This document shows positions 2,056-20,009 of a stretch of DNA of 64,000 bases, piece after piece; position 1 is the stretch's first letter; the number at the start of each line of letters is the position of its first letter. The translations under genes and the position numbers were made by a program. This DNA is from Patescibacteria group bacterium UBA5147 (lineage in GTDB: Bacteria > Patescibacteriota > Saccharimonadia > UBA4664), in the NCBI GenBank assembly GCA_002415345.1, contig DHXV01000001.1, positions 332,517 to 396,516 on the forward strand, written 5' to 3'. The notes beneath the pieces were generated by a model. It ran no database searches, was not told where the DNA came from, and was given only the letters and a program-made list of their open reading frames with translations.

Positions 2056-3948
2056 CTACGCTACCTCCCCGACTTCCTGGGCCGCGGCCGCGGCTTGCTC
2101 CTTGCGGGCGGCCTCAAGGGCCTTGGGGTCGGTGGAGATAAGCTGGGACTCGGTCTCGGAGGCCAGGATGCGGATGACGACGTGGTTGAGGCCGGCAAAG
2201 AACAGGCCCTCGCCCACAGGGAACTGGCTGAGGCGGTTCTTTTCCTCGCTGGTGAGCTTGAAGGTTTCGGCCACGATGTCGATGGCGCTCGGCGCCTGCT
2301 TGAGCAGCAGCTGAAGGGACGAGTTCGCCACCACGGCGCGGCCCATCTTGTTGCTCAGGAAGTCCTCGACGTCCTGGCTGATGGTTGTCAGGCCCAGGTA
2401 GTACTTACGGGCGCGCTTGGCCAGCGAGAACATGAAGGCGGCGGAGTCGTCGTACTTCATCAGCTGCCAGGCCTCGTCGATGATGAGGATGCGCTTGCGC
2501 TTGTCGCTTTTGACCTTGTTCCAGATGTAGTTGAGGACGATATACATCCCGACCGGGCGCAGTTCGTCTTCCAGGTCGCGGATGTTGAACACCAGGAAAG
2601 GGTTGTCGAGCTGGACGTTGGATTGTTCGCTGAAGATGCCGCTGAAGGTGCCGGTGGTGTACTTGCGCAGGCGCTGGGCCAGCGACGGGCCGTTGCCGGT
2701 CATTGAAGCCAACGTGTTGTAGAGGTCATTCATGGTGGGCGGCGTGGCGTTGTGGGTCAGAGGGTCCTTGGAGATACCGGCCCGGGCGTAGGTGTTGATG
2801 ATGGCCACGTCCATGTCGGCGTCCTCGGCCGGGGTCAGGGGCGAGGTCAGGGTGGCTCCGGTGGTTGAGTTGACCGTGGCGCCGCCCATCATCAGGCGCA
2901 GGAGGCCGTGGAGGGTAATGATGTTGGCCTGCAGGGCGTTGTCGGCCTCTTCCTGGTCGAAGACGCGGGGCAGGTCAAACGGGTTGATGCGGGTTTGGGA
3001 GGCCAGGCTCAGGCGCAGGTAGCTGCCGCCGACAGCGTCGCTCAGGGCGCGGTACTCGTTTTCCGGGTCGATAACGATGACCTCGACGCCCATCATCAGG
3101 CTGCGCAGGGCCTCTAATTTAATGGCGAAGGATTTACCGGCACCGGACTTGGCGAAGACCACCATGTTGGCGTTCTCCAAACTGAAGCGGTCGAACAACA
3201 CCAGGCCGTTGTTGTGGCGGTTGAGGCCGTAGAGGATGCCCTCGTTGCGGCTGAGTTCCGAGGAGGTGAAGGGGAAACTGGTGGAGAGGGCGCCGGTGTT
3301 CATGTTGCGGCTGATTTGCATCTGGTCGCTGGCCAGAGGTGTAGTGGTGTTAAAGCCCTGCTCCATCTGCAAGGTGGCCGGCTTGGTATAAATGAGCGAC
3401 TGGCCAAAGATGCCTTCGATCTTACGGCCGATCTGCGTGAGCTCGTCGATGCTGTTGGCGTACATCGTCAGGTACAGGCCGAAGCGGAAGAAGCGCTCCT
3501 CGCCCACCTGGAGCTTGTCGCGGAGTTCCTCGGCGTCTTGGATGGCCGCTTCCAATCCGGGGTCGCGGACACGGCCCTTTTCCTGGTTGATGGAATAAGA
3601 CGCCTCCAGTTGGCCGACCTTACGCTTAAGGTTATCAAGCACTACGCGGCTTTCGACCGGGTAGATGTAAAGGGAGATATCGATGATTTCGTCCAGGTTG
3701 ATGATGGGCGACAGCCAGCCGGTGAAGACTTGGCGGGGGTAACCGTAGACGTAGACGGTCTTGGCGTAACGCTTGCCAATGCGGATGTAGCCCGAATCCA
3801 CTTCAATTGAGGGCGGGGCGATGAGGTCGCGCATAGTGACTACGCCCTGACGGTAAATCAGCTCGGCTTCGCGCTGTTCGGCGGCGCGTTGTGACTCGGC
3901 CAGTGCACCCGGATCGATCTGTTCATTTTTTTTGCCAAATAGTGCCAT
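2056..3948 (-). CDS. virB4: Type IV secretion/conjugation ATPase, VirB4/TrbE/TraE family.
   Basis: Walker A FAKSGAGKS and Walker B RILIIDEAW (the DEAW is typical of VirB4). Size of 630 aa is typical of monoderm VirB4. The start overlaps the upstream stop in a TAATG. Confidence 0.85.
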   Translation of the reverse strand: MALFGKKNEQIDPGALAESQRAAEQREAELIYRQGVVTMRDLIAPPSIEVDSGYIRIGKRYAKTVYVYGYPRQVFTGWLSPIINLDEIIDISLYIYPVESRVVLDNLKRKVGQLEASYSINQEKGRVRDPGLEAAIQDAEELRDKLQVGEERFFRFGLYLTMYANSIDELTQIGRKIEGIFGQSLIYTKPATLQMEQGFNTTTPLASDQMQISRNMNTGALSTSFPFTSSELSRNEGILYGLNRHNNGLVLFDRFSLENANMVVFAKSGAGKSFAIKLEALRSLMMGVEVIVIDPENEYRALSDAVGGSYLRLSLASQTRINPFDLPRVFDQEEADNALQANIITLHGLLRLMMGGATVNSTTGATLTSPLTPAEDADMDVAIINTYARAGISKDPLTHNATPPTMNDLYNTLASMTGNGPSLAQRLRKYTTGTFSGIFSEQSNVQLDNPFLVFNIRDLEDELRPVGMYIVLNYIWNKVKSDKRKRILIIDEAWQLMKYDDSAAFMFSLAKRARKYYLGLTTISQDVEDFLSNKMGRAVVANSSLQLLLKQAPSAIDIVAETFKLTSEEKNRLSQFPVGEGLFFAGLNHVVIRILASETESQLISTDPKALEAARKEQAAAAAQEVGEVA

Positions 3949-4679
3949 TACAGTTTTGCTCCTGGGAGCGGCCGGTGCGGCGCGGCGCCCTCACCCTTTT
4001 CCACGACCGGTGTCATGAGCTGGGCGGTATCGATTAGTTTCTGGTTGACGGCCACGTCCGGGTTGTACCAGCCGTAGTAGAGGTCGATGAGTTCCTGGGT
4101 GCCGAGCGCGATGGCGCGGATGCCCATTTGGCTCATGCCGCTCGATACCAAGGCCACGCGTTGGGATAATTCCTGCTTGTAGTGCTTGAAGTCGTCCTCG
4201 GCCACAGTGATGACCGGCGTCGGTTGGAAGGCGGCCTTGAGTCCGGTGATGAGGCTGGCGCTCTTCTTGACGTTGACCGGCGGGAAGAACGGCACCACCA
4301 CGTAGAACTGCTTGTCCATGATGTTGACCTCCTCCACCAGGGCGCGGATGTTGGCGATGTAGTCTTCCATGAGGAGGCCCAACAGGTCGTTGGATTGCTG
4401 GGTGCGCAGGCCCACCAGCTTCTCAATGTAGTTGTCGAGGTCGATTTTCTGGCTCTTGATGACGATTTGGACCGGGAAGTGCAGCGAGTTCAAAAATCCC
4501 TGGTAGGCGAACTCGACGCCGTCCTGTTCCTGGGGGCTCATGAGGTCAAAGTTTATGGCACTGCCCAATACCACGGCGCGCATGCTGCCGTCTTTCATCA
4601 GCACCACACCGTCCTTGATCTCGGTGATCAGGAGCGTGTTCTGGGTACTCTTACTGGTCTTATTTACTGCTTGAGCCAT
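3948..4679 (-). CDS. Hypothetical soluble protein, translationally coupled to virB4 (TAATG overlap).
   Basis: 243-aa ORF with no TM or recognisable motif. Its position inside the T4SS block suggests an accessory role. Confidence 0.5.
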   Translation of the reverse strand: MAQAVNKTSKSTQNTLLITEIKDGVVLMKDGSMRAVVLGSAINFDLMSPQEQDGVEFAYQGFLNSLHFPVQIVIKSQKIDLDNYIEKLVGLRTQQSNDLLGLLMEDYIANIRALVEEVNIMDKQFYVVVPFFPPVNVKKSASLITGLKAAFQPTPVITVAEDDFKHYKQELSQRVALVSSGMSQMGIRAIALGTQELIDLYYGWYNPDVAVNQKLIDTAQLMTPVVEKGEGAAPHRPLPGAKL

Positions 4680-5520
4680 TGCTTCGTAATTCCACCGACT
4701 GACCTTCTTGTAACGGCGTAATGCGCGTGGCGGTTGCCGCCAGTTGCGACACCGTAAGGTCGTCTCTCTCCGTTGCTAATTTAAGTATATCGTTCGGGTT
4801 GGCTGTTGTCACGCTTGTGCTTATCTGCCGATTGTCGGCAACCTTGGGGGCCGGGCGACCGGTCATCTGGTCGATGGCTTCCTGGCGGATATCCACGGCG
4901 GCCTCCTGGATGAGCGAGGCCAGATTCTGCGCCAGAGGACTTTGCTGCAGGTCGAGCATATCGGGGGCCTGGGTTTCGTCGGCGACGTGCGGGGAGGTTT
5001 GGGCAGGTTCCACCAGTCGGTCGGAAACCACGTTCGGCTGGATGATCAGCGCGTCGGAAGCCGCCGAGGGCGGTGCGTTCCAGCCGCGCGAATCGATCAT
5101 GGTCCCGAGCCGCTCCAGCTCGCTGCGAACCTCCCTGGGGTTGCGCTGCGTCTGCTCCACCACCACGGCGTTGGGTTGGATGCGGAAGGAATCCACAACC
5201 TCGTCCTTGCGCCATAACCGTTGCCGCGACTGGGAGAAGTACCCCACCATGGCAATGAGCAATTGCTCAAAGTTCTGGCCGTCGCGCTGATAGAACGCCA
5301 GCAGGAGGAACAAAATGGTGACGGGCGCCGCCATGATAATCATCAACGGAACGACAGCGTGGAGCAGGGCATAACTTAACCCCGCCCACGTCACGCCGAT
5401 GATGGCGTAGATAAACTGCTTGAGCGTCAACGGCCCAAGAATATGGTCTTCGGCCTCAACGTTCTGCGGCACTTTATACTGGCTCATACCCTCTTGCTCC
5501 CTCATTCCACGCCCGCTCAC
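4660..5520 (-). CDS. Membrane protein with two adjacent N-proximal TM helices, possibly VirB3/PrgI-like, and a long C-terminal soluble region.
   Basis: Hydrophobic hairpin FIYAIIGVTWAGLSYALLHAVVPLMIIMAAPVTILFLLLAFY immediately upstream of the virB4 partner gene, the conserved VirB3-VirB4 order. Overlaps the downstream ORF by 20 nt. Assignment by architecture only. Confidence 0.4.
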   Translation of the reverse strand: MSGRGMREQEGMSQYKVPQNVEAEDHILGPLTLKQFIYAIIGVTWAGLSYALLHAVVPLMIIMAAPVTILFLLLAFYQRDGQNFEQLLIAMVGYFSQSRQRLWRKDEVVDSFRIQPNAVVVEQTQRNPREVRSELERLGTMIDSRGWNAPPSAASDALIIQPNVVSDRLVEPAQTSPHVADETQAPDMLDLQQSPLAQNLASLIQEAAVDIRQEAIDQMTGRPAPKVADNRQISTSVTTANPNDILKLATERDDLTVSQLAATATRITPLQEGQSVELRSNGSSSK

Positions 5521-5620
5521 TTTAATAGCGGAACATACTTGAGCTTATTATCGCCTACTTACTATCACCTATCAAGCAATGGGTCATCGTACACCCGGAC
5601 CGGCGGACGTTCAAGCCCAG

Positions 5621-8600
5621 CTAGTTGATGCTGCGGTCGTCGCCTGGTTCATTGGTTTGGTCGCGCGGAGCGAGACGGAGCGACGTACTCGGGCCGTTCG
5701 TTCGACTGCCAGGAGTGGTCGGCAAGATAATGGTCCCGTAGTCGGGGCGCCCGCCGGATTGCTTCAACCTTTCGGAAAGTGTAAAACTGGGTCGCTCCGA
5801 CGTTACATTCGGGATGTCAGTAACTGATGAACCTTGGTTGGGCGCAGTTCGCCACGTCATGGTTGCCGGCGGACTCATCGTAGTCGGCGCAGGTTCGGGT
5901 GTGCCTCCGCCAGGTACGTTAATAGTCACGTTAGTATCATAGGCATTGCTCGACGAAGGATTATGGTTGGGCAGGATCAAATTAGGATTTGGATTAACGC
6001 TAGTAGTAGGAATAACCAGGCCGTTTGGCTGGGTTGACCAACCGCCCGAGACGCCGCTTCTGGCTTGGGCAGCATTGGGATTGGGGCTGGTATTTTGATT
6101 GTAAGGAATGTTTTGGGTCGGCGCAGGGCCTGCAGAGACACCCGATGGAGCCGAGCTGGCCGCGGGTGCACTACCCCCAGCACTTGTCCCTGATCCGCCT
6201 CCACTCGGGGTACTCCCGCTAGGTCCAGAGCCGCCACCCACTGGTCCGGATCCTGTGACCGCACCGCCGGCCCTTTGGGCCGCTAGTAAATTGGCTTTCT
6301 CAACCGGGGTATGAACGCTTACTCCGATATCTGTGCCAAGTTGGTTCAGGGTATCTCGGGTATCATTGTTGATATTGTTAACGCCGGTCGTTGATCCGTT
6401 GATACCGACTACTACGTTTCGCATATTCTCATCAAAGGCATCCAGCTGCTGTTTTGCTGCAACTTCGCCCGTACTTCCGATAGCGGATACGTGCGCAGCC
6501 TTCAATGCGTTGCGACGGTTGACCATAGCTTGTGCGCCGACGTTATCAAGCCGGACGCCTTTCTCGGCCTTGATATTATCGTAAGCAGCTGCACCTCCGG
6601 GAGAGACTAAATGGGGTGCCTTTTCTTTTAGGCCGGAAAAATTCCCCGCCGTTGCCTTAATCCACTCGGAATTAGTCGTGTCGTTGCCATATTTATTGGC
6701 TAGGACGGTCTGTAGTTTTCCGGTATCTTCAATCGCCGCCAGCTTAGCCGTAGCAGCCCGGCTTGTGAACTGACTTGATTTGGTATCTAACGCCTTAGCT
6801 AACAGTGTCGACGGATTATCATTCTCTAGCAGGCGACCGGCCGCTGTCAGCTGATCTTTATCATTCTTTTCAAGAGCTCCTGCCATACGGTTAGGATCGA
6901 TTTTGTCGATACTCAGACCCGCCTGTTGTTGGGCTAATTTACGCTGGGTCCCCTGCTTTAAACGACCAAAACCGGTAGTTGCGGGACCCGCCTGATTTAA
7001 GGAATTGATTTTGGAAAGTCCCTTCTGCTGGCGGTTGTAAGCCCGGTTCTGTTTCATCTTGTCCTGCGCCCCGGAGATGGCGCTGTGGCCACGTTTGGCA
7101 TGGCCACTAATAAAGCCATGGCCCATCATCAAGGCGCTACCGGCAAATTTGAACGTTGCCGGAATAAGGAACAAGGCAATGATTGGCGCTAGGGCAGAAC
7201 CGAGCTTAGTCCAGTTTGAGGCATCCCCCGAACCTGTAATGACGACACTGAAGAATTTGGATGTCGCAAGCAATAGGACAATAATCGGGTACATTAGCAG
7301 CAGCTTGACAAGGGTTTCGCGCCACATCTTGAAGTACTTGTCGGTATTGGGCAGGACCCAAAGTAGAAAGGCTATCGGAGCTATAATAATCAGGAAGTCT
7401 ATGAGCATGATGCGAATCTGAAGAGTAATAAAGACCGCTATCAAACCAATAATAGCTGCGGCCAGGGCTAGTAAAAGCGGTATGGCAAACTCCGCGAGGA
7501 ATGGCGCGAAAGTCGCTGCCGCAACACCCGCACCAACACCCGCGCCGACTAATTCAACGGCGCCCGCGATTTGCATAACCCCTTCATTACCGGTTTTTAC
7601 CCCTCCGGGGATTGCTGCGGCCATGAGACTGTCGATACCCATACCCAGCACATTAGAGATGTCCACCATGAAGCCTACCAAAAGGTAGGAGAATTGAACG
7701 AGAACGGCTGCCGCTATGAGGCGGGGAAGGATTTTTTTGACCGTGTAATTATCGAGACCCATACTGGTGCCAAAAATAACAATAAAGAATATAAGCACAA
7801 AAAAGACGTCCGCTAGATTCCTAAACACAGCCCAGGCAGGCTTTAGGCCTGTGTCGCCAGACGCTAGGGGCGTGAACTTCAGTTGGTTCTTGACGACGCC
7901 GGTAAGATTGTTAACTGCACCTTGGGCTATGCTAATGACCGGACATAACAACCAGGTAAGACTGTCGACGGAGCAGACGGCTTGGACCTCGCTGGGTGTT
8001 GGATCTGTTGTCGGAGCAGCAGGAGCGTTGTTCTGACTGAGATTTAATGTATTTGACCCGGCCGCCAATACTACGCCGGGTTTGGTAATTTTTACGGGGA
8101 AGGAGGCCAGTCCTGGGCCTTCGCTGTACGCGCCATCAATAGTGACAGTGTAAGTTCCGGGCTTCAAATTTCCGAGAGTAAAACTGCCATTTGTGTTCAA
8201 GGGGACTTTTTGGGTTCCGCTCGGCCCGCCGGAGACGGTAAGGTAACCCGAGGTTACCGGCATGTCTTTTTTTAGGCCCTGGTCAAAAAAAGTGGCGGTG
8301 CCGGAGAGCGTTGCGGTCTTGGCTACGGCTGCCAGTGTCTTAACAGGTATCGTAACCTGGTCTAATTTGCCACCGACCGTACATAGATTCCGGCTGGGTC
8401 CACCGAGAAGCGTACCCCAGGTAAGAGAACTGGTGGGTGAACCCGTTCGGTCGGAAACTGAGACATTAAATAGGACGGTGTTATCGCATCCGCCGGAACT
8501 GCTTACCTGAGTGTTGTTTATCGGGCCGGATTTCCAGGTCTTCGACTTGGCATCATAGGTTAAGTTGACGGTTACGGGTTGTTCATTTGTGTCGCGTCGC

Positions 8601-8779
8601 GTGGCGATAACGGCAACATTGCTTGTCATGTTTGGAGTAAGGGTAACCTCTACTCCTCCGCGTCCCTGAGGATCTCCGGTGGTCGCCTGCGCCTGCGCTG
8701 GAAGTGCGGCAAATAAGTTACCTATAGACAATAAGCCTGTAGCCACCACCAACAACATTCGAGATAGTCTTTGCACCAT
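5621..8779 (-). CDS. VirB6/TrbL-like polytopic membrane protein (1052 aa) with signal peptide, a roughly 300-aa extracellular N-domain and a roughly 280-aa Ser/Gly/Pro/Asn-rich disordered C-terminal tail.
   Basis: Multi-TM core (FFVLIFFIVIFG...ILPRLIAAAVLVQFSYLLVGFMVDISNVLGMGI...) is paralogous to the core of 10157-12769. A LKPGTYTVTI Ig/CarbopepD_reg-like segment lies in the N-domain. The tail is low complexity (GSGPVGGGSGPSGSTPSGGGSG..., NPNPN). Confidence 0.6.
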   Translation of the reverse strand: MVQRLSRMLLVVATGLLSIGNLFAALPAQAQATTGDPQGRGGVEVTLTPNMTSNVAVIATRRDTNEQPVTVNLTYDAKSKTWKSGPINNTQVSSSGGCDNTVLFNVSVSDRTGSPTSSLTWGTLLGGPSRNLCTVGGKLDQVTIPVKTLAAVAKTATLSGTATFFDQGLKKDMPVTSGYLTVSGGPSGTQKVPLNTNGSFTLGNLKPGTYTVTIDGAYSEGPGLASFPVKITKPGVVLAAGSNTLNLSQNNAPAAPTTDPTPSEVQAVCSVDSLTWLLCPVISIAQGAVNNLTGVVKNQLKFTPLASGDTGLKPAWAVFRNLADVFFVLIFFIVIFGTSMGLDNYTVKKILPRLIAAAVLVQFSYLLVGFMVDISNVLGMGIDSLMAAAIPGGVKTGNEGVMQIAGAVELVGAGVGAGVAAATFAPFLAEFAIPLLLALAAAIIGLIAVFITLQIRIMLIDFLIIIAPIAFLLWVLPNTDKYFKMWRETLVKLLLMYPIIVLLLATSKFFSVVITGSGDASNWTKLGSALAPIIALFLIPATFKFAGSALMMGHGFISGHAKRGHSAISGAQDKMKQNRAYNRQQKGLSKINSLNQAGPATTGFGRLKQGTQRKLAQQQAGLSIDKIDPNRMAGALEKNDKDQLTAAGRLLENDNPSTLLAKALDTKSSQFTSRAATAKLAAIEDTGKLQTVLANKYGNDTTNSEWIKATAGNFSGLKEKAPHLVSPGGAAAYDNIKAEKGVRLDNVGAQAMVNRRNALKAAHVSAIGSTGEVAAKQQLDAFDENMRNVVVGINGSTTGVNNINNDTRDTLNQLGTDIGVSVHTPVEKANLLAAQRAGGAVTGSGPVGGGSGPSGSTPSGGGSGTSAGGSAPAASSAPSGVSAGPAPTQNIPYNQNTSPNPNAAQARSGVSGGWSTQPNGLVIPTTSVNPNPNLILPNHNPSSSNAYDTNVTINVPGGGTPEPAPTTMSPPATMTWRTAPNQGSSVTDIPNVTSERPSFTLSERLKQSGGRPDYGTIILPTTPGSRTNGPSTSLRLAPRDQTNEPGDDRSIN

Positions 8780-8891
8780 AATAAACTAACTTTAGCATTA
8801 GCGTTATGTATACGTAAATGCGCAAATAAAAAACACCCAGATGTGACACTCGAAAGAGTGTCACATCTGGGCTTATTTCTACGGGACGCGA

Positions 8892-9995
8892 TCAGTGTGA
8901 ATTCGCCCACAAGTTGGTATATCCGCCGGGGTCCGGCGAACTGAACCAGTTGTACATGAGCGAACGGGAGATGGTTTTGCCACCCCTCTGCTCGGTAGCC
9001 TCAACGGTTATTGTGCCCGGGTGGGCAGGCCCCGTTGATTTGAGCAAAGTTGACGTGAAGCCCGTTGGAACCTTGCCAGCCTTGAGGTCGGCAATTTCCT
9101 GGATTTCGACGGGATTGTCGCCCATTTCTCCGGGGTAGTAGAACCGAAGGAGGCCCTCGCTCTTTTGGATGAAAGCCTGCTGGCGCATACCCTCAAGCCG
9201 GGCGACGACCTTGGCCGGGTCGTCCTGAACCGATTGTCCGGTTTCAACCTGGGCGAACGAGGAGTTCGCCATGAACGCGGGCGCACCAACGATGAGCCAG
9301 TGCGTGCCTTCCAGACGGACGAGAACGGGACCCCATGACTTGGGGTCGCCTCCATTCGTGAACGAAAGCGACAGGTCGTACCAGCGGCTGGTCGAACCGG
9401 CTGCTGCCTGAGGGTCCGAAACGACAGTCGGTTCATTGGTCAGTGAGACGATTCCGCACAAGGCGGGCGACTGCTGACCGTACTGGACGTACCAGAATGA
9501 CTTCATCTCCTGCATGAACCCCCACAGGTAGTGAGGGTTAAGAGTAGACTTGCCGCCGTGACCGCACGATGCGGACCACGCGATGTTGAAACCTCCGAGG
9601 ATTTTGTCGATTCGATCGGTCGCCGCGCCCTTTATCGGAGGAAACTCCGGGAGGGCGTCAGCCGTCTTGAGGCGCTGGGCCAAAGGCACCCGTGCATCGG
9701 CAATACTGCCGACAAACGCCTTTGGGGTCGCAGGTACGTGTGCCGGAGCGACAGGCGCGTTGCCGGAGTTGCCGGTAAGAGGAGCCCTTACTGCCGGGTC
9801 GCTGAAGATGTTTGCAGATCCGGCGTTGTCCTGATTCACGGCGTTGATGAGGGAGGTTGCGAACCACGCCGCGCCAATGACCAGAAGAACCAGGGCAATC
9901 CAGACGACTCGCATGACCTTCTTCTTGGTGCTGGTCGGCTGCGGCTGGATTGAGGGAGTCTCGGTGACCCCATCAGTGTGACGTGTGGTAGTCAT
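8892..9995 (-). CDS. Bitopic protein (27-aa cytoplasmic N-terminus, one TM, about 310-aa extracytoplasmic domain); candidate VirB8/TcpC-like T4SS component.
   Basis: The topology matches VirB8-like proteins and it lies between the two VirB6 paralogs. No sequence motif was recognised. Confidence 0.4.
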   Translation of the reverse strand: MTTTRHTDGVTETPSIQPQPTSTKKKVMRVVWIALVLLVIGAAWFATSLINAVNQDNAGSANIFSDPAVRAPLTGNSGNAPVAPAHVPATPKAFVGSIADARVPLAQRLKTADALPEFPPIKGAATDRIDKILGGFNIAWSASCGHGGKSTLNPHYLWGFMQEMKSFWYVQYGQQSPALCGIVSLTNEPTVVSDPQAAAGSTSRWYDLSLSFTNGGDPKSWGPVLVRLEGTHWLIVGAPAFMANSSFAQVETGQSVQDDPAKVVARLEGMRQQAFIQKSEGLLRFYYPGEMGDNPVEIQEIADLKAGKVPTGFTSTLLKSTGPAHPGTITVEATEQRGGKTISRSLMYNWFSSPDPGGYTNLWANSH

Positions 9996-10078
9996 GAGCT
10001 TCCCCTTCCGGGAAAAAGAACTTGGATGTCAAATTCCGCGGAGTGCGGAACTGCCTACGGTTGATGCCGTTATATCAG

Positions 10079-10108
10079 TTTATACAGCATAACCGGTAAA
10101 ATGTCAAT
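10079..10108 (-). promoter_or_regulatory. Sigma70-like promoter (TTGACA-N18-TGnTATAAA, extended -10) for the 8892-9995 gene. The 5' UTR contains a TTCCGC-N5-GCGGAA hairpin.
   Basis: Read on the minus strand. A GGAAGG RBS precedes the ATG at 9995. Confidence 0.45.
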
Positions 10109-10156
10109 GCTTACCTCTCGAAGTACTCCTTGATCGGTCCGGCTGCACCCAACATA

Positions 10157-12769
10157 TTATGAGGTAGGTGGCGGCGTGGTATTGCGCCCGATATTCTTCA
10201 ACCGGGCAGCCTCCTGCTTTGTCACCCAATTGCTAGCATCTGAATTGAGCTTGAGAGTACTGGTTGCGGGGTTATACTTGCGGCCCTGCATCAACTCATA
10301 GGCTACCCATGCCTTGGTTGTCGTCGATAGATTATCGAGCAAGGTAGCCGGTACGCCGGCTTCGCGGGCAAGCTCGTGGGTTATATCTGAGTCGCGGTGG
10401 AAGTCGGCTGTGAGAGCCTCATATTTATCGCGTCCCACTTGCGTTGCGGTGATGGCAGCCCGCTGGGATGCAAAGGCTCGGGCCATTTTGAGGCGGTGTT
10501 CAACCGGGGCCATGTTGCGACCCGTAACGTCAAATGCACCGGTAATTGAACGCTGAGGCAAGCTGGCTGCCACACGCTCGGCGCTTTCCCTGGACACGCG
10601 TTTTTCAAGTTCGGTGGCATCCGGCTCCTGGCCTTTGAGGATAACGCCCCAGTTGTCGGTGGAAAACTTGTCGCCCAGGGTGTTGGCGGTGGTCTTGCGG
10701 AGCTGCTTATCGATTGAGGTCCAATCCAGGTCGCCGCGTTCGCGCTTCATTACCAATTCAACTTCATTGCCGCTGGAGTCGATGACCTTCATGGGCTGTC
10801 CTGCCGCATCCTTAGGGGTATATTTATCTTTGGCTTCTGTCATGCGCATCGTGGAAAACGGGTTGGAGGAGCGACTCTTGCCGACTTCACTCATCAATGC
10901 GGCGTATTCGGACGCGGGATCGCGACTGACGCTCGTGGGGTTAGAGAGCCTACCGGCCTTTAAGACGTTGTTGACATCGTTGTCGGTTAGGAAACCCTTG
11001 TCGCTGAGGCGGCTGAGTATCGCCCGGCGTCCGGTTTGGTTGGAGCCTATTTGTGCCAGGTTGGGTACGGTACGGTTCAGATCGTCAATCCTTCCCCTAC
11101 GTTTGGCTGCGTCCGGTTCGGCGTAGGCGGCCAAAACATCTTGCATGTTCTTTGGGCTCTGAGCCTCGGTCAGGTCATCAAGTAATTTGCCGTCCGACTT
11201 TACCAGCTGTGCATTTCTCTTATCCAGTGCGCGCTTGCTGGTTGGCCCGCCTGCCAGCATGCCGCCGCCGAAGCCGACCATCGCCGCCCCGGCGACTCCG
11301 CGCTTTAATTTATTACCGCTCGAGAGTGAGGTTATCGGCTTTGAATTCATGAAGTTTTCCATATGCTGGTTCTTACGCTTTTTGCGCTCATCAACCCCGC
11401 GCTGCCAGAAATCGCTGCTCTTGAGGGCGCCTTTTCCGCGTTGGGCGTGGCCGTTCATCAGATCGTAGGCCCGGGTGAGGCCCTTTCCGGCTAGTTTGAA
11501 CGTCACAGGAATAATCAGGAAGGCCGCAATGACCACTATGGGTTTGATCAGGTTTCCGGCCATACCGGCGCCAACACTGTCGGCGGTTGAACTGCCAGCT
11601 GGCAGGATTGAGTTGACGAGGCCGGCCAGAGAAATTACGCCGACGATAATCGGATACATTAAGACGAGCCGAAATAACAGCTCCATCCAGTCCTTGGCCC
11701 AGTGGCGCGTGTTGGGCAGAACCCAGGCAACCATGGCCAAAGGTGAAACCACGATGAGAATGGCGATGAGCAGGAAGCGCAGGCCCAACACCAGGAAGAC
11801 GACCAGGAGCGAAATGGCCATGCTCGCCAGGAGCGGCGCGATTGCTACCCACGACGCGGCACCTAGAACAGCGCCAAGCGCCAGGGCGCCGGCCAGACCT
11901 ATTCCAACCAGGTTAGTCAGGACGTGGGCAAAGCTGGCGTCGCTTTGCGGCCCGGTAGCCGCTCTCAGCAGGTCTTCAATCCCCGCCCCCATGACGTTGC
12001 CGATATCCACCATGAACCCGACAAGCAGGAATGAAGCTTGGACTAAGATCGCCGCTACCACGAGCCGCGGCAGGACCTTTTTGATGGTGTATTGATCGAA
12101 GTAGCCGATATCCTGCTGGGTGATGGTCGCAAAAATAATAACCAGGAAAACCAGCAGGAACATAATCTCTGCCAGATTGACCATTTTGAGCCAGATATCG
12201 TATAGCTCGGGCGTGGACTGTTGATTGATGGCCTTCACCCGAAGGAGCGGTATCAGGACGCCGTTCGCGAGCTTAGTGATGGCGCCGGTAGCGTTGTCGA
12301 TGAACGGACACATGAGCCAGGACATGCTGCCCTGGTCGCACGAGGCGGCGGCCGCCTGCTGGTCGGCCGTGGTGGTACCGTCCGCTTTGGCCACGGCAAT
12401 AGCGAGGTCAAAGGCGGCACAGGATGCCTCGGACGGAACAGTCAGGTTCGCCAGGGTCGGATAAATCTTTTTGAAGTCGGCATTGCTGACGTCAAGGGAG
12501 ACTTTGGAGGTTTTTGCGGCCCCGCTGCATGTGTAGGAGACGTCGCCCGTGAAGGTCGCCGCGGAGGTAGCGGCGGTCTTCTTGAGGGTTCCGCTGACCT
12601 GGCCACTGCCCCCGGCTACCGTCACAGATTGGTTGGTATCGTCGGCCCAGGCGTATGTTTCCCCCGCCGCGTGCGCGGGCTGAGCTATCAAGGTCAGCGC
12701 GGCTATTGCGACTGCCGCCAAAAACGCGCGGCTAAAGTGTAGTTTTAAGATAGATATAAGGTAAAACAC
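10157..12769 (-). CDS. VirB6/TrbL-like polytopic membrane protein paralog (870 aa) with signal peptide, Cys-containing extracellular N-domain and about 420-aa hydrophilic C-terminal domain.
   Basis: TM core MFLLVFLVIIFAT...TIKKVLPRLVVAAILVQASFLLVGFMVDIGNVMGAGIEDLL closely parallels the 5621-8779 core. A shared pre-TM motif (SMSWLMCPFI versus SLTWLLCPVI) is present. Confidence 0.6.
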   Translation of the reverse strand: MFYLISILKLHFSRAFLAAVAIAALTLIAQPAHAAGETYAWADDTNQSVTVAGGSGQVSGTLKKTAATSAATFTGDVSYTCSGAAKTSKVSLDVSNADFKKIYPTLANLTVPSEASCAAFDLAIAVAKADGTTTADQQAAAASCDQGSMSWLMCPFIDNATGAITKLANGVLIPLLRVKAINQQSTPELYDIWLKMVNLAEIMFLLVFLVIIFATITQQDIGYFDQYTIKKVLPRLVVAAILVQASFLLVGFMVDIGNVMGAGIEDLLRAATGPQSDASFAHVLTNLVGIGLAGALALGAVLGAASWVAIAPLLASMAISLLVVFLVLGLRFLLIAILIVVSPLAMVAWVLPNTRHWAKDWMELLFRLVLMYPIIVGVISLAGLVNSILPAGSSTADSVGAGMAGNLIKPIVVIAAFLIIPVTFKLAGKGLTRAYDLMNGHAQRGKGALKSSDFWQRGVDERKKRKNQHMENFMNSKPITSLSSGNKLKRGVAGAAMVGFGGGMLAGGPTSKRALDKRNAQLVKSDGKLLDDLTEAQSPKNMQDVLAAYAEPDAAKRRGRIDDLNRTVPNLAQIGSNQTGRRAILSRLSDKGFLTDNDVNNVLKAGRLSNPTSVSRDPASEYAALMSEVGKSRSSNPFSTMRMTEAKDKYTPKDAAGQPMKVIDSSGNEVELVMKRERGDLDWTSIDKQLRKTTANTLGDKFSTDNWGVILKGQEPDATELEKRVSRESAERVAASLPQRSITGAFDVTGRNMAPVEHRLKMARAFASQRAAITATQVGRDKYEALTADFHRDSDITHELAREAGVPATLLDNLSTTTKAWVAYELMQGRKYNPATSTLKLNSDASNWVTKQEAARLKNIGRNTTPPPTS

Positions 12770-12814
12770 AATATACCAACGTAACAGGATTTGACTGTTT
12801 TGTCAAAAGCTGTT

Positions 12815-12843
12815 TTGACTTATTGTTTCCGCTTGGCTATGAT
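12815..12843 (+). promoter_or_regulatory. Promoter TTGACT-N17-TATGAT. The -10 ends 6 nt before the ATG at 12850, implying a leaderless or near-leaderless pilin transcript.
   Basis: Hexamers read directly. Divergent from the VirB6 paralog gene. Confidence 0.5.
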
Positions 12844-12849
12844 TTGGCC

Positions 12850-13281
12850 ATGAAGCGCATATTTCTCGCAATCTGGATAGCTCTCGTTTTGGCTGCCGCG
12901 GCAATGCCAGTCAGCTATGAGTTAACCAGCGGCCGAATGACAGTCGTCTCTTCTATGGCCCTCGCAGCATGTCCTGACGGTCAAGTTGAATTGAGTGTCA
13001 AAGTTAATAGCACCGATAGCGGATGCGTTAAGCCTGATCCTAATGGCGGGGTAATCATTACTTATCTCAAGACGATCTTGAAGTTCTTGAGCGGGGGCGT
13101 CGGCATTGTCATTTTGCTTATGCTCACCATAGCGGGCGTCCAATACATGACCGCTGTCGGCCAACCCGAGCAGGTGAAGGCTGCCAAGACCCGGATCCAG
13201 AACGCCCTCACCGGCTTGGTGCTGTTCCTTATTGCCTTCGCCGTCCTTAACTTAATCATCCCCGGGAGTATCTTCGGCTAA
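12850..13281 (+). CDS. VirB2/TrbC-like T4SS pilin paralog 1 (the ORF track starts at TTG 12823; the ATG at 12850 gives a clean signal peptide MKRIFLAIWIALVLAAAAMP).
   Basis: Signal peptide, a variable region with a Cys pair (AACPDG...DSGCVKPD), then two C-terminal hydrophobic helices separated by a short polar loop (VGQPEQVKAAKTR). Confidence 0.5.
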   Translation: MKRIFLAIWIALVLAAAAMPVSYELTSGRMTVVSSMALAACPDGQVELSVKVNSTDSGCVKPDPNGGVIITYLKTILKFLSGGVGIVILLMLTIAGVQYMTAVGQPEQVKAAKTRIQNALTGLVLFLIAFAVLNLIIPGSIFG

Positions 13282-13625
13282 TGTTTGCTTTAAGCTTCTT
13301 TAAACTGGCCGCCGCCTGCACGACGACCACCAAAGGCGGAATCGCTCCGGGGTTGTATGATAACTTGTGCTCGAACGGCACAGATATGTTTTCCAGCTTG
13401 ACTGACATCTGGATCGTCGTCGCCAACGTCATCCGTATCCTGGTGGCGCTCGGCGGGGCGCTGGCGGTTATTTTCATCATCGTCGGCGGCCTGTTCTACG
13501 TCGTATCATCGGGAGATCCCGGCCGCATCAAGCGGGCCAAGGACATACTCAAGGAATCGATTATCGGTCTGATTATTACATTGATAGCGTATTCGGCTAT
13601 AACGTTTATAGCGGCGCAGTTTTAG
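13281..13625 (+). CDS. VirB2/TrbC-like pilin paralog 2.
   Basis: TAATG overlap with paralog 1. N-terminal region has a Cys pair, followed by IIVGGLFYVVSSGDPGRIKRAKDILKESIIGLIITLIAYSAITFIAAQF. Confidence 0.5.
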   Translation: MFALSFFKLAAACTTTTKGGIAPGLYDNLCSNGTDMFSSLTDIWIVVANVIRILVALGGALAVIFIIVGGLFYVVSSGDPGRIKRAKDILKESIIGLIITLIAYSAITFIAAQF

Positions 13626-13627
13626 CG

Positions 13628-13936
13628 ATGATGAACTTACAGCACCTTTATTCCGTCGTCGCCCCCATTTCGGTTAAGGCCGATGAAATCGGGCTTCCTC
13701 ACTCCACAGAAACCGTCGGCGGGGCACTGAACGTCGCTGTAAAAATCCTGATCTTCCTGATCGGGATGCTGTCGGTGGTAATGATTATCGTCGGCGGAAT
13801 TAAGATTGTCGTTTCAAATGGCGACCCGGGTCGGTATAAATCGGGACGGGACACCATAACCTACGCTATAGTTGGTCTGATTCTATCCTTGGTAGCCTAC
13901 TCGATAGTAATTTTCATCGCCAGTAACGTTAAATAG
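13628..13936 (+). CDS. VirB2/TrbC-like pilin paralog 3.
   Basis: MIIVGGIKIVVSNGDPGRYKSGRDTITYAIVGLILSLVAYSIVIFIASNVK. No Cys pair and a weak N-terminal hydrophobic region. Confidence 0.45.
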   Translation: MMNLQHLYSVVAPISVKADEIGLPHSTETVGGALNVAVKILIFLIGMLSVVMIIVGGIKIVVSNGDPGRYKSGRDTITYAIVGLILSLVAYSIVIFIASNVK

Positions 13937-13947
13937 AAGGATTCATC

Positions 13948-14256
13948 ATGCCTGCCACTTTTTTGGCCAATGCCAGCGACATTATTAAACAATCAGCGGA
14001 TCTGGCATGTAAGACCGACTGTAACACCAGGGGCCTCCCGCTCATCATCCAGTCGGTAACTACTGCACTCCTGGGAGTCATCGGGGCGCTGGCGGTAATC
14101 ATGATTATCGTCGGCGGTCTTCGGTATGTCACCTCCGGAGGCGACCCGAAGAAAACGGCCGATGCTAAAAATACCATAATGTACTCTATCGCCGGCGTCG
14201 TGGTGGCGATTATGGCTTATGCGATAGTGAAGTTTATCATCGCCTCGGTAAAATAG
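13948..14256 (+). CDS. VirB2/TrbC-like pilin paralog 4.
   Basis: RBS AAGGAT. Cys pair CKTDC, followed by IMIIVGGLRYVTSGGDPKKTADAKNTIMYSIAGVVVAIMAYAIVKFIIASVK. Confidence 0.5.
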   Translation: MPATFLANASDIIKQSADLACKTDCNTRGLPLIIQSVTTALLGVIGALAVIMIIVGGLRYVTSGGDPKKTADAKNTIMYSIAGVVVAIMAYAIVKFIIASVK

Positions 14257-14334
14257 CGCTCCGTTGCCATACCTCAAACGGTATGGTAATCTCAGCGTAA
14301 GTTATTCAACAAAAATAAGGAGTCATATACTCAG

Positions 14335-14754
14335 ATGAGAATCGCAATCCTCGGCAAGAAAATTGCCTTAACCATGCAGGCAGTCGCCATCGGCCTGGGC
14401 TTTAGCGCCTTCAGCCTGGCTGCCGTAACAGTTGTCCCGTCAACTGCCCTAGCCGCAGACTGTTCCACTCTCAATATTTCAAACGGAGCCGACTGTGCCG
14501 CCCCGACTGGTGCCAAACCCACATTGTTCGGTGAAGGCAGCATCTTCAACACCGTTGCCAACACCCTGATCTTCCTGGTCGGCGCCATTGCCGTCCTGTT
14601 CCTGATTATCGGCGGTCTCCGCTACGTCGTATCCAACGGCGAGGCCAAGAACGTTGAAGCAGCCAAGAACACCATTCTCTATGCCATCATCGGTATCGTC
14701 GTGGCGATCCTGGCCTATGCGGCCGTCAAGTTCGTCATCACGTCCCTGGCCTAG
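14335..14754 (+). CDS. VirB2/TrbC-like pilin paralog 5 (clear signal peptide).
   Basis: RBS AAGGAG. Cys pair CSTLNISNGADC, followed by FLIIGGLRYVVSNGEAKNVEAAKNTILYAIIGIVVAILAYAAVKFVITSLA. Confidence 0.5.
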   Translation: MRIAILGKKIALTMQAVAIGLGFSAFSLAAVTVVPSTALAADCSTLNISNGADCAAPTGAKPTLFGEGSIFNTVANTLIFLVGAIAVLFLIIGGLRYVVSNGEAKNVEAAKNTILYAIIGIVVAILAYAAVKFVITSLA

Positions 14755-16232: not shown

Positions 16233-16325
16233 GGAGAGGTACCCAAGTGGCTGAAGGGGCGGGTTTGCTAAACCTGTAGGGGGAAGTAATTCCCCGCGAG
16301 AGTTCGAATCTCTCTCTCTCCGCCA
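16233..16325 (+). tRNA. tRNA-Ser (anticodon GCT), class II long variable arm, CCA encoded.
   Basis: Hand-folded cloverleaf. T-arm GGTTCGAATCC. Anticodon loop TTGCTAA. Confidence 0.8.
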
Positions 16326-16327
16326 AG

Positions 16328-16360
16328 AAAAAGACCCGGTTTGTAGCCGGGTCTTTTTCT
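16328..16360. terminator. Bidirectional terminator (AAAAA-GACCCGGTTTGTAGCCGGGTC-TTTTTCTT) shared by the tRNA-Ser and the convergent 16369-18849 gene.
   Basis: 8-bp stem plus T-run. Confidence 0.8.
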
Positions 16361-16368
16361 TGGCTTAA

Positions 16369-18849
16369 TTAGTTGTCGTAAACAATCCCGGCCACTCTTT
16401 GGTCTTTTGAATCGATTTGGTCGGAACGGAAAGTAACGTTACCGTCCGGCTCAATAATAAAGGCGCCCTTCGTGGCAAACGGCGACCCCGCTACCGACAA
16501 GTTGTGCTCCTGGCTAAGTGTCTCGGCGATATTGCGCCCTCCCTTTGGTGTTCCGGCCGTGGAGCAGGCCTGGAGGATGACCCGGAAATTCGGTCCGAGA
16601 TGGCGGGTATAGTCGTTAGCCCGACCATGAATCTTAGCGCGTTTGGTATCCAGGTCGATAAAATCAGCAACATCTATCCCCTCATTAACGTCGTTCCTGC
16701 TCCCCAGCAGGAGGCCGTCCGGATTTGCATGGCCGTGGATGATAAGGTTTTTAACCGTGCCTTCTTTGAGCGGATCGCGGCCGTTGGCTCGGTCGCGGCT
16801 CCCAATCGCCACTAGGTCTTTGGCGAGCGAAGTCGAGTCACCTGCCTCAAAGTAAACCGCTGAGGAGCCGATTTGGCTGGTGAAATCCGAACCGACATCC
16901 TTAACCGCTCCGTTCCAGTCTGACTGTGCAGCAATAATCACATTTTCGTAAGTTGCGGAGCCGTCGTCCCAGCTGGCGAGTTGATTATGGAGTTGGCCAG
17001 GCCTGTAGCGGCGGAAGTTGCGTATGCCAAAAGTGTTTATGACCGAATTGAGCTCATTGGCCCCATAGCTGTCGGCGTAGTCGGTGAAAGCTTCGACTTG
17101 GCTCGCGATCATTTCGCACTGGTTTTTTTCTACGCTCATCAGCTCGCCCGAGCTTACTTCGGGCTTTGCGCCTGAATTGAAGCGCAACATAGAGAATGCC
17201 GAGAATTCGGTCCAGGTATCGAACATCTCCCGCGCGGCCTCATCGGTTAGGCCGGATTGGTCGAACTCGGCTGCCAGGGTCGGCATATCCTCAAACCTGG
17301 GCCTCAGCGCGCGGTCCGCTGAGCTGGCCAACCCGGATGCGGCTACAGGAACTAAACCGCGCTCAAAGGCCTTGGCGTATTCGCTGTTGATCTTCCAGTT
17401 GGTGCAGAATCTTTCAACCTTGGCGTCGAGCTGCTCGCTGTCGTGATGGGCTTCAACCAGGCTCTTGAGGGAGAGGAACGATTTACTATCGATGGAACCG
17501 GAATTTATATCCTGGGCAGACAGGCTACGGGCAGTTTCAATGAAGGCGTTGGCGGTTGCCTGCGGTTCCGGGCCGGTAGCCAAGGCGTCGACAAACATGT
17601 TTTTTAACTGGGGTGAGGCGTCCGCCAGAAGCGGCTTCGCTACCAGCAGGGCCTTGGCAACCTCAAGTGGCTGATTGCCTCTGATGACGCGGTCGGCAAA
17701 ATCGGGGCTGCCATCAAAATCAGTGCCGACGATGTCCAAACCCTGCCGGATGACGTCGCAGGTTCGCGTTGGCTCTGCCTCATCACGGACGCGTCGGGCA
17801 ATCAAATCCAGGTACGGCGTAGCCTGCGGGTCCGCAGCCGCATCTTTGAGGGCGATAGCGAAACCGGGACTGAACTCGATAAGATCAGTGGGGTATTTAT
17901 CGCAAAGCGCTGCAAACTGCCTGATAGTCTGCGCGTTCGGTTCGCCGAAGATCGCTTCGCTGGCGCGGAGGGCGACCACAGGATCAGCAAACGGGGCCAC
18001 GCTCTTAATGGCGTTTTGACGCGCTGCCGATGACGGGTTATCCGGTTCAATCGTTGCCAGGGCTTCGGCAGCCAGTCGGGCTGAGTCGAGGTAGATCTTG
18101 CGATCGGCCGGGTCCTTGAGCTTGGTCGCGTTGGGAACAAATTCCCCGGCGTAGTTACCTAAGCCGCGGTCAACAACCCCGCTAATCAATTCCATTCGTA
18201 CGGCAATATCGCCCTCAAAGTTTGAAGCTTCACGCTTGGCTGCATCCGGGTAGGCAGGCAATTCTTGCCAGATTTTCTGCGGGACGGTCGAGGCTGAATC
18301 CGGCGAACCCGCAGTTTCGATTAAGATATTGGCGCTTTGAGCATCCAGACCGTTACCGGTGATTGTCGTAAAGAGCTCGCGGTGTTTTTCTTCGCTGAGG
18401 CGGGCAATTGTAGTCCTTACCCGCTCAGCTTCTTCCGGTTCAAGGGACGCGTTGGTCAGTGGAAATTCGATTACTTTAGCTTCGCTAGGGGAGGCAGACA
18501 CCAAACCCTTGGCGGCTTCAATCTGGCCTTGTCTTACAAGGAGAATCAAGGTGGTGTCGAGTTTATACTTGGCTCCGTCGTTGTCTCGGTAAGGACTCCC
18601 CACCTCTCTGGTAGTACAGAGCGCGGCCAGATGGGTCTTCGCAGCCTCAGGATTCGCCGCGATAGCTTCGATAATTGCTGTCGACAGGTCTTCCGGGGTG
18701 GCGGATTCGCGCAGGCCGGCGATACTTGATTCAAGGCTTTCGGCAGCCTTTTGTTGCTCTTGGATTGCTAACAGATTTTGGGCCAATTCAGCACCAGATA
18801 AGGAAGGGGCTTCTTGATTGGTGGGTAACGGCTCTGCTTCAGTGTTCAT
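16369..18849 (-). CDS. Large (about 826 aa) protein with a helical/repeat N-terminal region and a C-terminal caspase-like (CHAT / clan CD peptidase) domain.
   Basis: C-terminal candidate dyad: His in LIIHGHANPDG and Cys in RVILQACSTAG (compare the caspase QACRG motif). The track start at 18897 falls inside the tRNA at 18870-18955, so the Met17 start at 18849 is used. Confidence 0.45.
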   Translation of the reverse strand: MNTEAEPLPTNQEAPSLSGAELAQNLLAIQEQQKAAESLESSIAGLRESATPEDLSTAIIEAIAANPEAAKTHLAALCTTREVGSPYRDNDGAKYKLDTTLILLVRQGQIEAAKGLVSASPSEAKVIEFPLTNASLEPEEAERVRTTIARLSEEKHRELFTTITGNGLDAQSANILIETAGSPDSASTVPQKIWQELPAYPDAAKREASNFEGDIAVRMELISGVVDRGLGNYAGEFVPNATKLKDPADRKIYLDSARLAAEALATIEPDNPSSAARQNAIKSVAPFADPVVALRASEAIFGEPNAQTIRQFAALCDKYPTDLIEFSPGFAIALKDAAADPQATPYLDLIARRVRDEAEPTRTCDVIRQGLDIVGTDFDGSPDFADRVIRGNQPLEVAKALLVAKPLLADASPQLKNMFVDALATGPEPQATANAFIETARSLSAQDINSGSIDSKSFLSLKSLVEAHHDSEQLDAKVERFCTNWKINSEYAKAFERGLVPVAASGLASSADRALRPRFEDMPTLAAEFDQSGLTDEAAREMFDTWTEFSAFSMLRFNSGAKPEVSSGELMSVEKNQCEMIASQVEAFTDYADSYGANELNSVINTFGIRNFRRYRPGQLHNQLASWDDGSATYENVIIAAQSDWNGAVKDVGSDFTSQIGSSAVYFEAGDSTSLAKDLVAIGSRDRANGRDPLKEGTVKNLIIHGHANPDGLLLGSRNDVNEGIDVADFIDLDTKRAKIHGRANDYTRHLGPNFRVILQACSTAGTPKGGRNIAETLSQEHNLSVAGSPFATKGAFIIEPDGNVTFRSDQIDSKDQRVAGIVYDN

Positions 18850-18869
18850 AACGGTAGTATAGCGATTTT

Positions 18870-18955
18870 TGGCGGAGGGGGTGGGATTCGAACCCACGGA
18901 GCTTTCGCTCGCCGGTTTTCAAGACCGGAGCACTCGGCCACTATGCGACCCCTCC
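18870..18955 (-). tRNA. tRNA-Ser (anticodon TGA), long variable arm.
   Basis: Reverse complement reads GGAGGGGTCGCATAGTGG...CTTGAAA...GGTTCGAATCCCACCCCCTCCGCCA. Confidence 0.8.
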
Positions 18956-19074
18956 GTGCCAACCTATTGTAGTTACCTGGCCGATATTTTCAATCCTGTT
19001 CTTACCCAACCATAACCATTGTATTGTACAATCGCTGCGCTATCGGCCATAATGAGAGCGAATAAGGACTACTC

Positions 19075-19919: not shown

Positions 19920-20009
19920 GGAGAGGTCGCATAGTGGACTAGTGCGCCGCACTCGAAATGCGGTGAGGCCGCAAGGCTTCCGAGAGTTCGAATCTCTCCC
20001 TCTCCGCCA
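19920..20009 (+). tRNA. tRNA-Ser (anticodon CGA), long variable arm.
   Basis: GGAGAGGTCGCATAGTGG...CTCGAAA...GTTCGAATCTCTCCCTCTCCGCCA. Confidence 0.8.

Follow-up and report, generated by a model that had tools for sequence, protein, structure and literature searches.

Cysteine peptidases of clan CD are known to share a characteristic catalytic dyad, in which a histidine precedes a cysteine in the sequence and both lie at the C-terminal ends of the neighboring strands beta3 and beta4, after hydrophobic blocks and with the histidine followed by a glycine or an alanine (PMC4357240). In the C80 branch of this clan, which includes the cysteine protease domains of the MARTX/RtxA toxins and of TcdA and TcdB, a beta-flap replaces alpha4 and alpha5 of the caspases (PMC4357240). 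Tce1 (PA0256), a DUF4347 effector of the Pseudomonas aeruginosa type VI secretion system (T6SS) that is loaded by Hcp3, has a His186/Cys240 dyad that its authors aligned with the dyad of TcdB, and Tce2 is toxic in yeast in dependence on its predicted active site (PMC13323088). Here we describe a gene for an 826-residue protein in a 64,000-nucleotide stretch of contig DHXV01000001.1 of Patescibacteria group bacterium UBA5147 (hereafter, the window). A preliminary description of this gene had proposed a caspase-like CHAT protease, perhaps a defense effector, at an island site between two tRNA genes. Our results indicate that the C-terminal domain, as modeled, is a clan CD (caspase-haemoglobinase) fold, an assignment that we consider robust, and that it is a new family within this clan, related to DUF4347.

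The fold assignment draws on structure prediction and on residue conservation. An AlphaFold2 model of the C-terminal domain, built on a 35-sequence alignment, had a predicted local distance difference test (pLDDT) value of 94.1 and a predicted template modeling (pTM) score of 0.92, and a full-length model built on 45 sequences had values of 92.1 and 0.76. In the model, residues 19 to 630 are all alpha-helical and strands alternate with helices from residue 636 to residue 824, with core strands at 636-641, 664-669, 701-705, 756-760, and 785-788; beyond the last of these, at the secondary-structure level of the model, there are only strands (805-808, 818-820, and 822-824) and no helices. His707 and Cys762 sit at the C-terminal end of strand 701-705 and of strand 756-760, respectively, each following a hydrophobic strand in the contexts NLIIH-G-H-A and RVILQ-A-C, which is the arrangement of a clan CD dyad. 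The alpha/beta/alpha sandwich of the clan, with its central and mostly parallel beta-sheet, is also present in the model, as Foldseek searches of the PDB with the domain model matched structures of C80, DUF4347, CHAT, C13, C25, and C14 proteins with probabilities of 0.87 to 1.0. From the model and the alignment, we infer that, in the cleavage of peptide bonds, the nucleophile would be Cys762 and the general base His707, on neighboring parallel strands.

Conservation, counted over approximately 120 aligned C-terminal domains, agrees with this prediction. Cys762 is invariant (122 of 122 sequences), as are His707 (118 of 118) and W546 (99 of 99), while Q623 (119 of 120), E668 (118 of 120), and P693 (100 of 102) are nearly so and D644 is kept in 111 of 120. 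Within the helical segment that precedes the core (residues 516 to 630), F607 and F612 are strongly conserved and W627 is nearly invariant. The preliminary description had recognized the clan CD arrangement, a reading that a lack of structural similarity to clan CD peptidases would have refuted; such similarity was found, and both motifs that it cited, LIIHGHANPDG and RVILQACSTAG, are present. A conserved histidine does lie within the first motif, and it is H707; H705 was rejected as the catalytic residue because this position varies across the family (H31/S20/A15). Its measurements need revision, as the two catalytic residues are separated by 55 rather than about 45 residues, and the conserved module takes up about 310 residues (516 to 826), with an alpha/beta core of about 190 (636 to 824), rather than the C-terminal 150 or so.

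Relatives of this protein are numerous. With the focal protein alone as the query, nothing was matched in Pfam, in NCBIfam, or among PDB sequences, and a word-indexed homolog search turned up, besides the protein itself, a single relative at 70%, with nothing for the C-terminal domain alone. An exhaustive HMMER search with a two-sequence alignment as the query recovered 146 representatives of clusters at 50% identity at E<=1e-3, 83 of them at E<=1e-30, and the gene can therefore be taken as real. The C-terminal domain is present in 129 of the 147 proteins gathered. Median identity to the focal protein is 17% for residues 1 to 515, 30% for residues 516 to 630, and 36% for residues 631 to 826. 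All relatives with a named source genome come from metagenome-assembled genomes (MAGs) of Patescibacteria, except for one contig labeled Sphingomonadaceae that is probably misbinned; the related loci bear Saccharibacteria or Patescibacteria MAG titles, one protein is named Nomurabacteria, and a shorter form of the family occurs in a Nomurabacteria MAG and on other contigs. A genome scan and a metagenome scan, both dependent on short peptide patterns, returned few loci (7 and 14, respectively) and are not a measure of prevalence. No Pfam model covers the family, and searches of the literature did not turn up any account of a protease of this kind in Saccharibacteria or Patescibacteria. What is new is the family, its helical subdomain, the fusion to a solenoid, and the restriction to Patescibacteria; the catalytic type and the fold are already known.

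The placement of the family within clan CD can be judged from structure and from sequence profiles. The first Foldseek match of the domain model was the RTX cysteine protease domain of Vibrio cholerae (3gcd_A; E, 1.8e-5), and the second was Hcp3-bound Tce1 (9qpe_G; E, 5.6e-5), which gave the best template modeling (TM) score, 0.54 normalized by target length. Ranks 3 to 6 were taken by further RTX/MARTX cysteine protease domains (3eeb, 8yjc from V. vulnificus MARTX, and 3fzy), and the C80 matches as a whole had E values of 1.8e-5 to 1.5e-3 with probabilities of 0.99 to 1.0. The CHAT structures 8tl0, 7y84, and 8d9f appeared from the ninth rank downward, below C80 and Tce1, with E values of 3e-3 to 4e-2 and a root mean square deviation (rmsd) of 5 to 6 Å over approximately 180 columns. 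The lower matches comprised SAVED-CHAT and TPR-CHAT proteins, the GPI transamidase (7wld_K), gingipains, legumains, and CED-3 (4m9r; E, 8e-3; probability, 0.87). A search of the BFVD viral structure library gave weak, scattered clan-CD-like matches; one entry, A0A8S5P2H5 (Siphoviridae sp. ctKUC4, "minor capsid protein (fragment)"), matched with an E value of 1.9e-6 over 307 columns but superposed poorly overall (rmsd, 23 Å); going by the models, this phage protein could be related to proteases of this type.

In sequence profile comparisons, neither Pfam CHAT nor Peptidase_C14, the caspase profile, matched the focal protein (E<=10) or any of 35 family members (E<=1), and Peptidase_C80 matched neither the focal protein nor the 35 members. 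When the family profile was compared with PDB sequences at E<=10, 9qpe_G was the sole clan CD chain found (E, 0.027) and no C80 chain was recovered, so that no family other than Tce1/DUF4347 could be detected with sequence profiles. An hhalign comparison of the family with Tce1 (probability, 81%; E, 1.2e-5) covered a stretch spanning both catalytic motifs and placed the family histidine and cysteine on positions 77 and 131 of the 9qpe_G chain, which are His186 and Cys240 of Tce1. The DUF4347 model (PF14252) touched 9 of the 35 members, with a best E value of 1.8e-5 and all scores below the gathering score. Taken together, the structural ranking, a sequence signal confined to DUF4347, and the beta-only end after the fifth strand are three independent lines that would favor the C80/DUF4347 (Tce1-like) branch over CHAT, and the CHAT label of the preliminary description is not borne out. 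We treat the proteins as a new family because they fall below the C80 and DUF4347 thresholds and add a helical subdomain of 115 residues and a solenoid.

The likenesses and differences are instructive. In Tce1, as in the focal domain, helices flank a central sheet, and the dyads of the two align. However, sequence identity is only about 15%; Tce1 has 310 residues and is carried inside Hcp rings, the size range of Tce1 and Tce2 is 190 to 310 residues as against 826 here, and the focal family adds its 115-residue subdomain and a solenoid of 500 residues. None of the genes annotated in the window region or at the related loci belongs to a T6SS. With the C80 domains (3GCD, 3EEB, 3FZY, and 8YJC and those of TcdA/TcdB), the focal domain shares a His-then-Cys dyad at the ends of adjacent strands, and its model has only beta-strands after the fifth core strand, which at the secondary-structure level resembles the beta-flap. 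In contrast, identity to C80 is about 10%, the focal protein does not form part of a giant, secreted toxin with repeats, and activation by inositol hexakisphosphate (InsP6) is implausible in bacteria; the conserved basic residues of the family (R685, R687, R691, and R749) lie outside the flap-like C-terminal strands. The CHAT proteins (PF12770; TPR-CHAT/Csx29 of Craspase and SAVED-CHAT) belong to the same clan and likewise carry their protease at the C terminus, after an N-terminal region of helical repeats. They differ in their lack of any sequence match and lower structural rank, and the focal gene lacks a CRISPR, cyclic-oligonucleotide-based antiphage signaling system (CBASS), or sensor partner and any defense context. 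Separase (C50), HetF, and proteases of the YabG type are cytoplasmic members of clan CD, and in separase the C-terminal protease is joined to a large helical region. The likeness to these proteins is architectural only, as no sequence match or top-ranking structural match was obtained for the separase, HetF, or YabG types.

One further residue bears on specificity. The loop after the first core strand shapes the S1 pocket in clan CD families other than the caspases. In the focal family this loop holds the conserved D644, which, by analogy with loop L1 of the caspase family (PMC4357240), may shape an S1 pocket toward basic residues; the presence of a conserved aspartate where S1 residues usually lie suggests a specificity other than for leucine, unlike that of C80.

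The N-terminal region is of a different character. Its composition (13.8% Ala and 8.4% Leu) and its modeled helices confirm the Ala/Leu-rich helical region of the preliminary description, and it is the fastest-evolving part of the protein. For the full-length model, the only matches were to helical repeats of a generic, TALE-like kind, with TM scores of <=0.25 and rmsd values of >20 Å; these matches were rejected as a sign of DNA binding. A profile of residues 1 to 515 also found 12 long proteins (1,128 to 1,351 residues) that lack the protease domain and have other C-terminal regions, together with five short sequences (191 to 303 residues). In one group of these sister proteins the C-terminal head carries the motif GNWDATYNAANL...RIDTGN, which we take to resemble a kinase catalytic loop, and in another there is a Cys-rich motif, GYDTGCCMT...SESCIW; the heads had no relatives in Pfam or among PDB sequences. 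As sister proteins share the solenoid with other C-terminal heads, the solenoid appears, from these sequences, to behave as a reusable module.

The gene itself lies, as described previously, between an oppositely oriented tRNA-Ser(gct) with its terminator and tRNA-Ser(tga), which was verified by the open reading frame (ORF), by ARAGORN, and by the terminator hairpin (Table 1). This terminator sits between tRNA-Ser(gct) and the stop codon of the protease gene and is common to both. The NCBI/ENA records (P0154, 842 residues) place the start at a GTG at 18897, within tRNA-Ser(tga); this start was rejected because it creates a 28-nucleotide overlap with the tRNA, and the ATG at 18849 agrees with the aligned N terminus of P0002, a homolog with 70% identity. 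No Shine-Dalgarno-like sequence precedes this ATG, and a TATACT hexamer lies 7 to 12 nucleotides upstream of it; it is possible, therefore, that the mRNA is leaderless or is cotranscribed with the tRNA. The promoter-like site beyond tRNA-Ser(tga) could, going by its consensus match, drive such a tRNA-protease cotranscript.

Table 1. Coordinates of the protease gene, its predicted domains and residues, and surrounding features in the window
Feature	Position	Strand	Remarks
Protease coding sequence, 826 residues plus stop codon	16369..18849	minus	ATG start; predicted soluble, acidic
N-terminal alpha-solenoid, residues 19-505	17335..18795	minus	paired helices of 10-17 residues; pLDDT 92
Family-specific helical subdomain, residues 516-630	16960..17304	minus	precedes core; W546, F607, F612, and Q623 invariant or nearly so, W627 nearly
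Predicted clan CD alpha/beta protease core, residues 631-826	16372..16959	minus	model and Foldseek
Codon of His707, predicted catalytic histidine	16729..16731	minus	aligns with Tce1 His186
Codon of Cys762, predicted nucleophile	16564..16566	minus	aligns with Tce1 Cys240
Codon of Asp644, candidate S1-pocket residue	16918..16920	minus	loop after first core strand
tRNA-Ser(gct)	16233..16325	plus	ARAGORN; convergent with protease gene
Bidirectional intrinsic terminator	16322..16364		18-bp perfect stem (16322-16339/16347-16364), 7-nucleotide loop, A-run and T-run
tRNA-Ser(tga)	18870..18955	minus	ARAGORN; on protease gene strand; 3' end 20 nucleotides upstream of ATG
Promoter-like site TTGAAA-16-TACAAT	18966..18993	minus	upstream of tRNA-Ser(tga); consensus match only
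VirB4-like ATPase	2056-3948
TraC-like gene	3948-4679
PrgI	4660-5520
TrbL_3	5621-8779
Two unknown genes, 367 and 870 residues	10157-12769 (870-residue ORF)
Five tandem T4SS_pilin genes	~12823-14754
Long sister proteins P0096, P0098, P0108, P0109, P0113, P0115, P0119, P0123, P0124, P0135, P0138, and P0143			outside window

The wider locus, which belongs to a Saccharibacteria-like genome and occurs in identical copies on four metagenome contigs, includes a type IV secretion system (T4SS) block of the Patescibacteria type (2056 to 14754), followed by genes for HSP20 and a ComF-like phosphoribosyltransferase, all at lower coordinates than the protease gene. The 870-residue ORF of this block and TrbL both match one part of a 1,503-residue TrbL_3 protein in a related locus (L027), and by this comparison they look partly paralogous. 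On the other side lie orf205, tRNA-Arg(gcg), tRNA-Ser(cga), orf276, and genes for ValRS, TsaD, FemAB, and a Mur ligase. Four tRNA-Ser genes occur within 28 kb, the other two being those for cga (19920-20009) and gga (44180-44267). Three of the tRNA-Ser genes cluster with tRNA-Arg(gcg) around the protease gene, and the set of Ser-tga, Ser-gct, Arg-gcg, and Ser-cga recurs in L027 and in a second related locus, L018. Indeed, the block of pilin genes, HSP20, tRNA cluster, protease gene, and ValRS is kept in L027/L028 (GCA_002429485.1), where the protein is 46% identical, and in L018/L006, where it is 32% identical. The protease gene does not keep one position with respect to the tRNAs: the two tRNA-Ser genes are both upstream of it in L027, it comes after tRNA-Arg and tRNA-Ser(cga) in L018, and only in the window lineage does it stand exactly between two tRNA-Ser genes. 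The 3' halves of these two tRNA-Ser genes (16297-16329 and 18866-18898) form a 33-nucleotide inverted repeat, 79% complementary, that brackets the protease gene and could promote rearrangements at the tRNAs; the gene-order differences between the window, L027, and L018 fit inversions or rearrangements of this kind.

These observations do not support the island site that had been suggested for the gene. As the preliminary description noted, no integrase is visible, and none was found among the annotated genes for approximately 10 kb on either side; nor is there an att-type direct repeat flanking the gene. The GC content of the gene is 0.557, compared with 0.561 for the window, and a scan of viral contigs found no relative. 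The GC content at third codon positions (GC3) is 0.617, the third lowest of the 44 genes of the window (median, 0.70; ValRS, 0.81; VirB4-like, 0.85; TrbL, 0.54). Horizontal transfer was considered on this account and rejected, since the value falls within a continuous range of 0.54 to 0.85, and the low GC3 more probably reflects a weak bias in codon usage, in a gene that evolves fast or is expressed at a low level, than a foreign origin. The protease gene has long resided on the chromosome, in a tRNA-rich block next to T4SS pilin genes, and is not the cargo of an island.

The neighborhoods of the family were examined at approximately 30 loci in all, with clustering of the ORFs of 22 loci. The commonest neighbor is a Mur-ligase family gene, found at 13 loci and directly convergent with the protease gene in 8, which form a second synteny group (L007, L008, L014, L015, L016, L020, L021, and L024; the distance after the stop codon is 204 bp in L021 and 18 to 24 bp in the other seven). 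The neighbors of distant short-form members are genes for BacA, PG_binding, ArgRS, IleRS-RecO-FtsK, or SecA and an M16 peptidase, and the IleRS, RecO, and FtsK neighbors are codirectional, overlapping genes. Cell-envelope genes (Mur ligase, FemAB, BacA, and PG_binding) recur near family members, which may have arisen by chance, given the small genomes, or may point to a link to the cell wall; linkage to aminoacyl-tRNA synthetases was rejected as meaningful, being expected by chance in small genomes. No recurring sensor, NTPase, TIR, SAVED, CRISPR, or small immunity-like gene was found in the window or at the other loci, and the linked sensors (TPR, NTPase, or TIR) for which a check had been proposed were thus not seen. 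The gene is also subject to decay and duplication. In L011 (9944-10708) only a C-terminal fragment with an in-frame stop remains, in L027 (10001-11425) the N-terminal 380 residues are missing and unrelated small ORFs lie between the tRNAs, and L032 (3272-6862) has two tandem paralogs, both with the protease domain. Its truncated or pseudogene-like state in some lineages means that the gene is not strictly essential.

On balance, we think it probable that the protein is a two-module, soluble cysteine endopeptidase, restricted to Patescibacteria. The C-terminal 310 or so residues, comprising the helical subdomain and the clan CD core, would be the protease, and the N-terminal 500 or so residues would form the alpha-solenoid. 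The solenoid would most likely bind a substrate or a partner protein, as suggested by its fast evolution, its truncation in one relative, and its reuse with other heads. We slightly favor, as a tentative proposal just short of an even chance, that the protease is exported without a Sec signal, possibly via the adjacent T4SS, and acts on the host. The detectable relatives are protease domains of translocated toxins or effectors, and the proximity of pilin and T4SS genes in one clade, the modular and fast-evolving N terminus, and the dispensability of the gene in some lineages all argue for export. Some observations weigh against the explanation as a whole. The Foldseek TM scores are modest, at 0.4 to 0.54 normalized by target length; the best DUF4347 scorer, P0112, reached 23.3 bits compared with a gathering score of 24.6, and the focal protein had no match to this model. 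Against export, proximity to a T4SS is seen in one Saccharibacteria clade only, and other members (those beside Mur ligase, BacA, IleRS-RecO-FtsK, or SecA-M16 genes) have no T4SS nearby. No secretion signal or chaperone for the protease was identified, and, while the T4SS of Patescibacteria has been reported as essential for epibiotic growth, no substrate was named (PMC12102498).

The principal rival, which we consider rather unlikely, is that the protein is an endogenous regulatory or processing protease, which stays in the cytoplasm of the epibiont and cleaves one or a few of its own proteins, for example, division or envelope factors, with the solenoid selecting the substrate as in the separase, HetF, and YabG types. 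No signal peptide or transmembrane segment was predicted in the 826 residues, and the family is found in Saccharibacteria and, as the short form, in at least one other class (the Nomurabacteria MAG). Housekeeping genes are the neighbors both in the window (ValRS-TsaD-Mur ligase-FemAB) and elsewhere (Mur ligase, BacA, IleRS/RecO/FtsK, and SecA with M16), and the short distance from tRNA to ATG, together with the promoter-like site, makes cotranscription of a housekeeping type possible. However, neighborhoods in genomes of approximately 1 Mb are rich in housekeeping genes by default. All of the detectable relatives, the C80 domains and Tce1/Tce2, are translocated toxins or effectors, and decay in some lineages and an N-terminal module with a median identity as low as 17% that is swapped among heads are difficult to reconcile with an internal regulator.

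A bolder form of the host-directed explanation, and one that we regard as unlikely, is that the protein is the protease arm of a modular effector system of Patescibacteria. The solenoid would serve as a delivery or targeting module, the heads would be interchangeable (a clan CD protease here and kinase-like and Cys-rich heads in the sister proteins), export would proceed through the relaxase-less T4SS, and host proteins would be cleaved or modified.

It is very unlikely that the C-terminal domain is solely an autoprocessing module, as in MARTX, TcdA, and TcdB, that frees the solenoid as the active factor, or that the enzyme is a transpeptidase or ligase rather than a hydrolase. The C80 autoprocessing domains, which cut approximately 30 residues N-terminal of the first strand (PMC4357240), rank highest among the structural matches, the core is preceded by a conserved helical segment, and the GPI transamidase among the structural matches could be cited for the transpeptidase variant. 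Nevertheless, there is no conserved Leu-small motif upstream of the core, and at the sole candidate site, L532-G533, the focal protein has S-G. The bacterium is described as lacking InsP6, which activates the C80 domains (PMC4357240), the conserved basic residues lie away from the flap-like strands, and the sister proteins have the same solenoid without a protease domain. The remaining explanation, that of a CHAT-type effector of an anti-phage or abortive-infection system on a tRNA-associated island, is largely refuted and the least probable of all: the clan CD fold, the CHAT structures among the matches, an architecture that recalls TPR-CHAT, two flanking tRNA genes, and a single weak PADLOC match (PD-Lambda-5_A; E, 0.004 over 43 residues) are outweighed by the missing CHAT and C14 profile matches, the lower rank of CHAT, and the absence of recurring partners, island features, and viral-contig relatives noted above.

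In summary, we provide evidence for a conserved, well-folded, and previously unannotated family in the Patescibacteria (candidate phyla radiation), a group that accounts for a large share of bacterial diversity and consists of obligate epibionts, for which little is known of the proteins used on hosts. This analysis corrects a tempting but wrong annotation as a CHAT defense island. With relatives among toxins and effectors and a position beside T4SS pilin genes in one clade, the family is a concrete candidate for a host-directed factor. If the protein were instead an endogenous regulator, it would still add to clan CD a new family, one in which the helical subdomain is new and a solenoid is fused on, and this family would merit an entry in Pfam and MEROPS. 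If the modular effector system proves to be real, these proteins would be the first candidate substrates for the T4SS of Patescibacteria.

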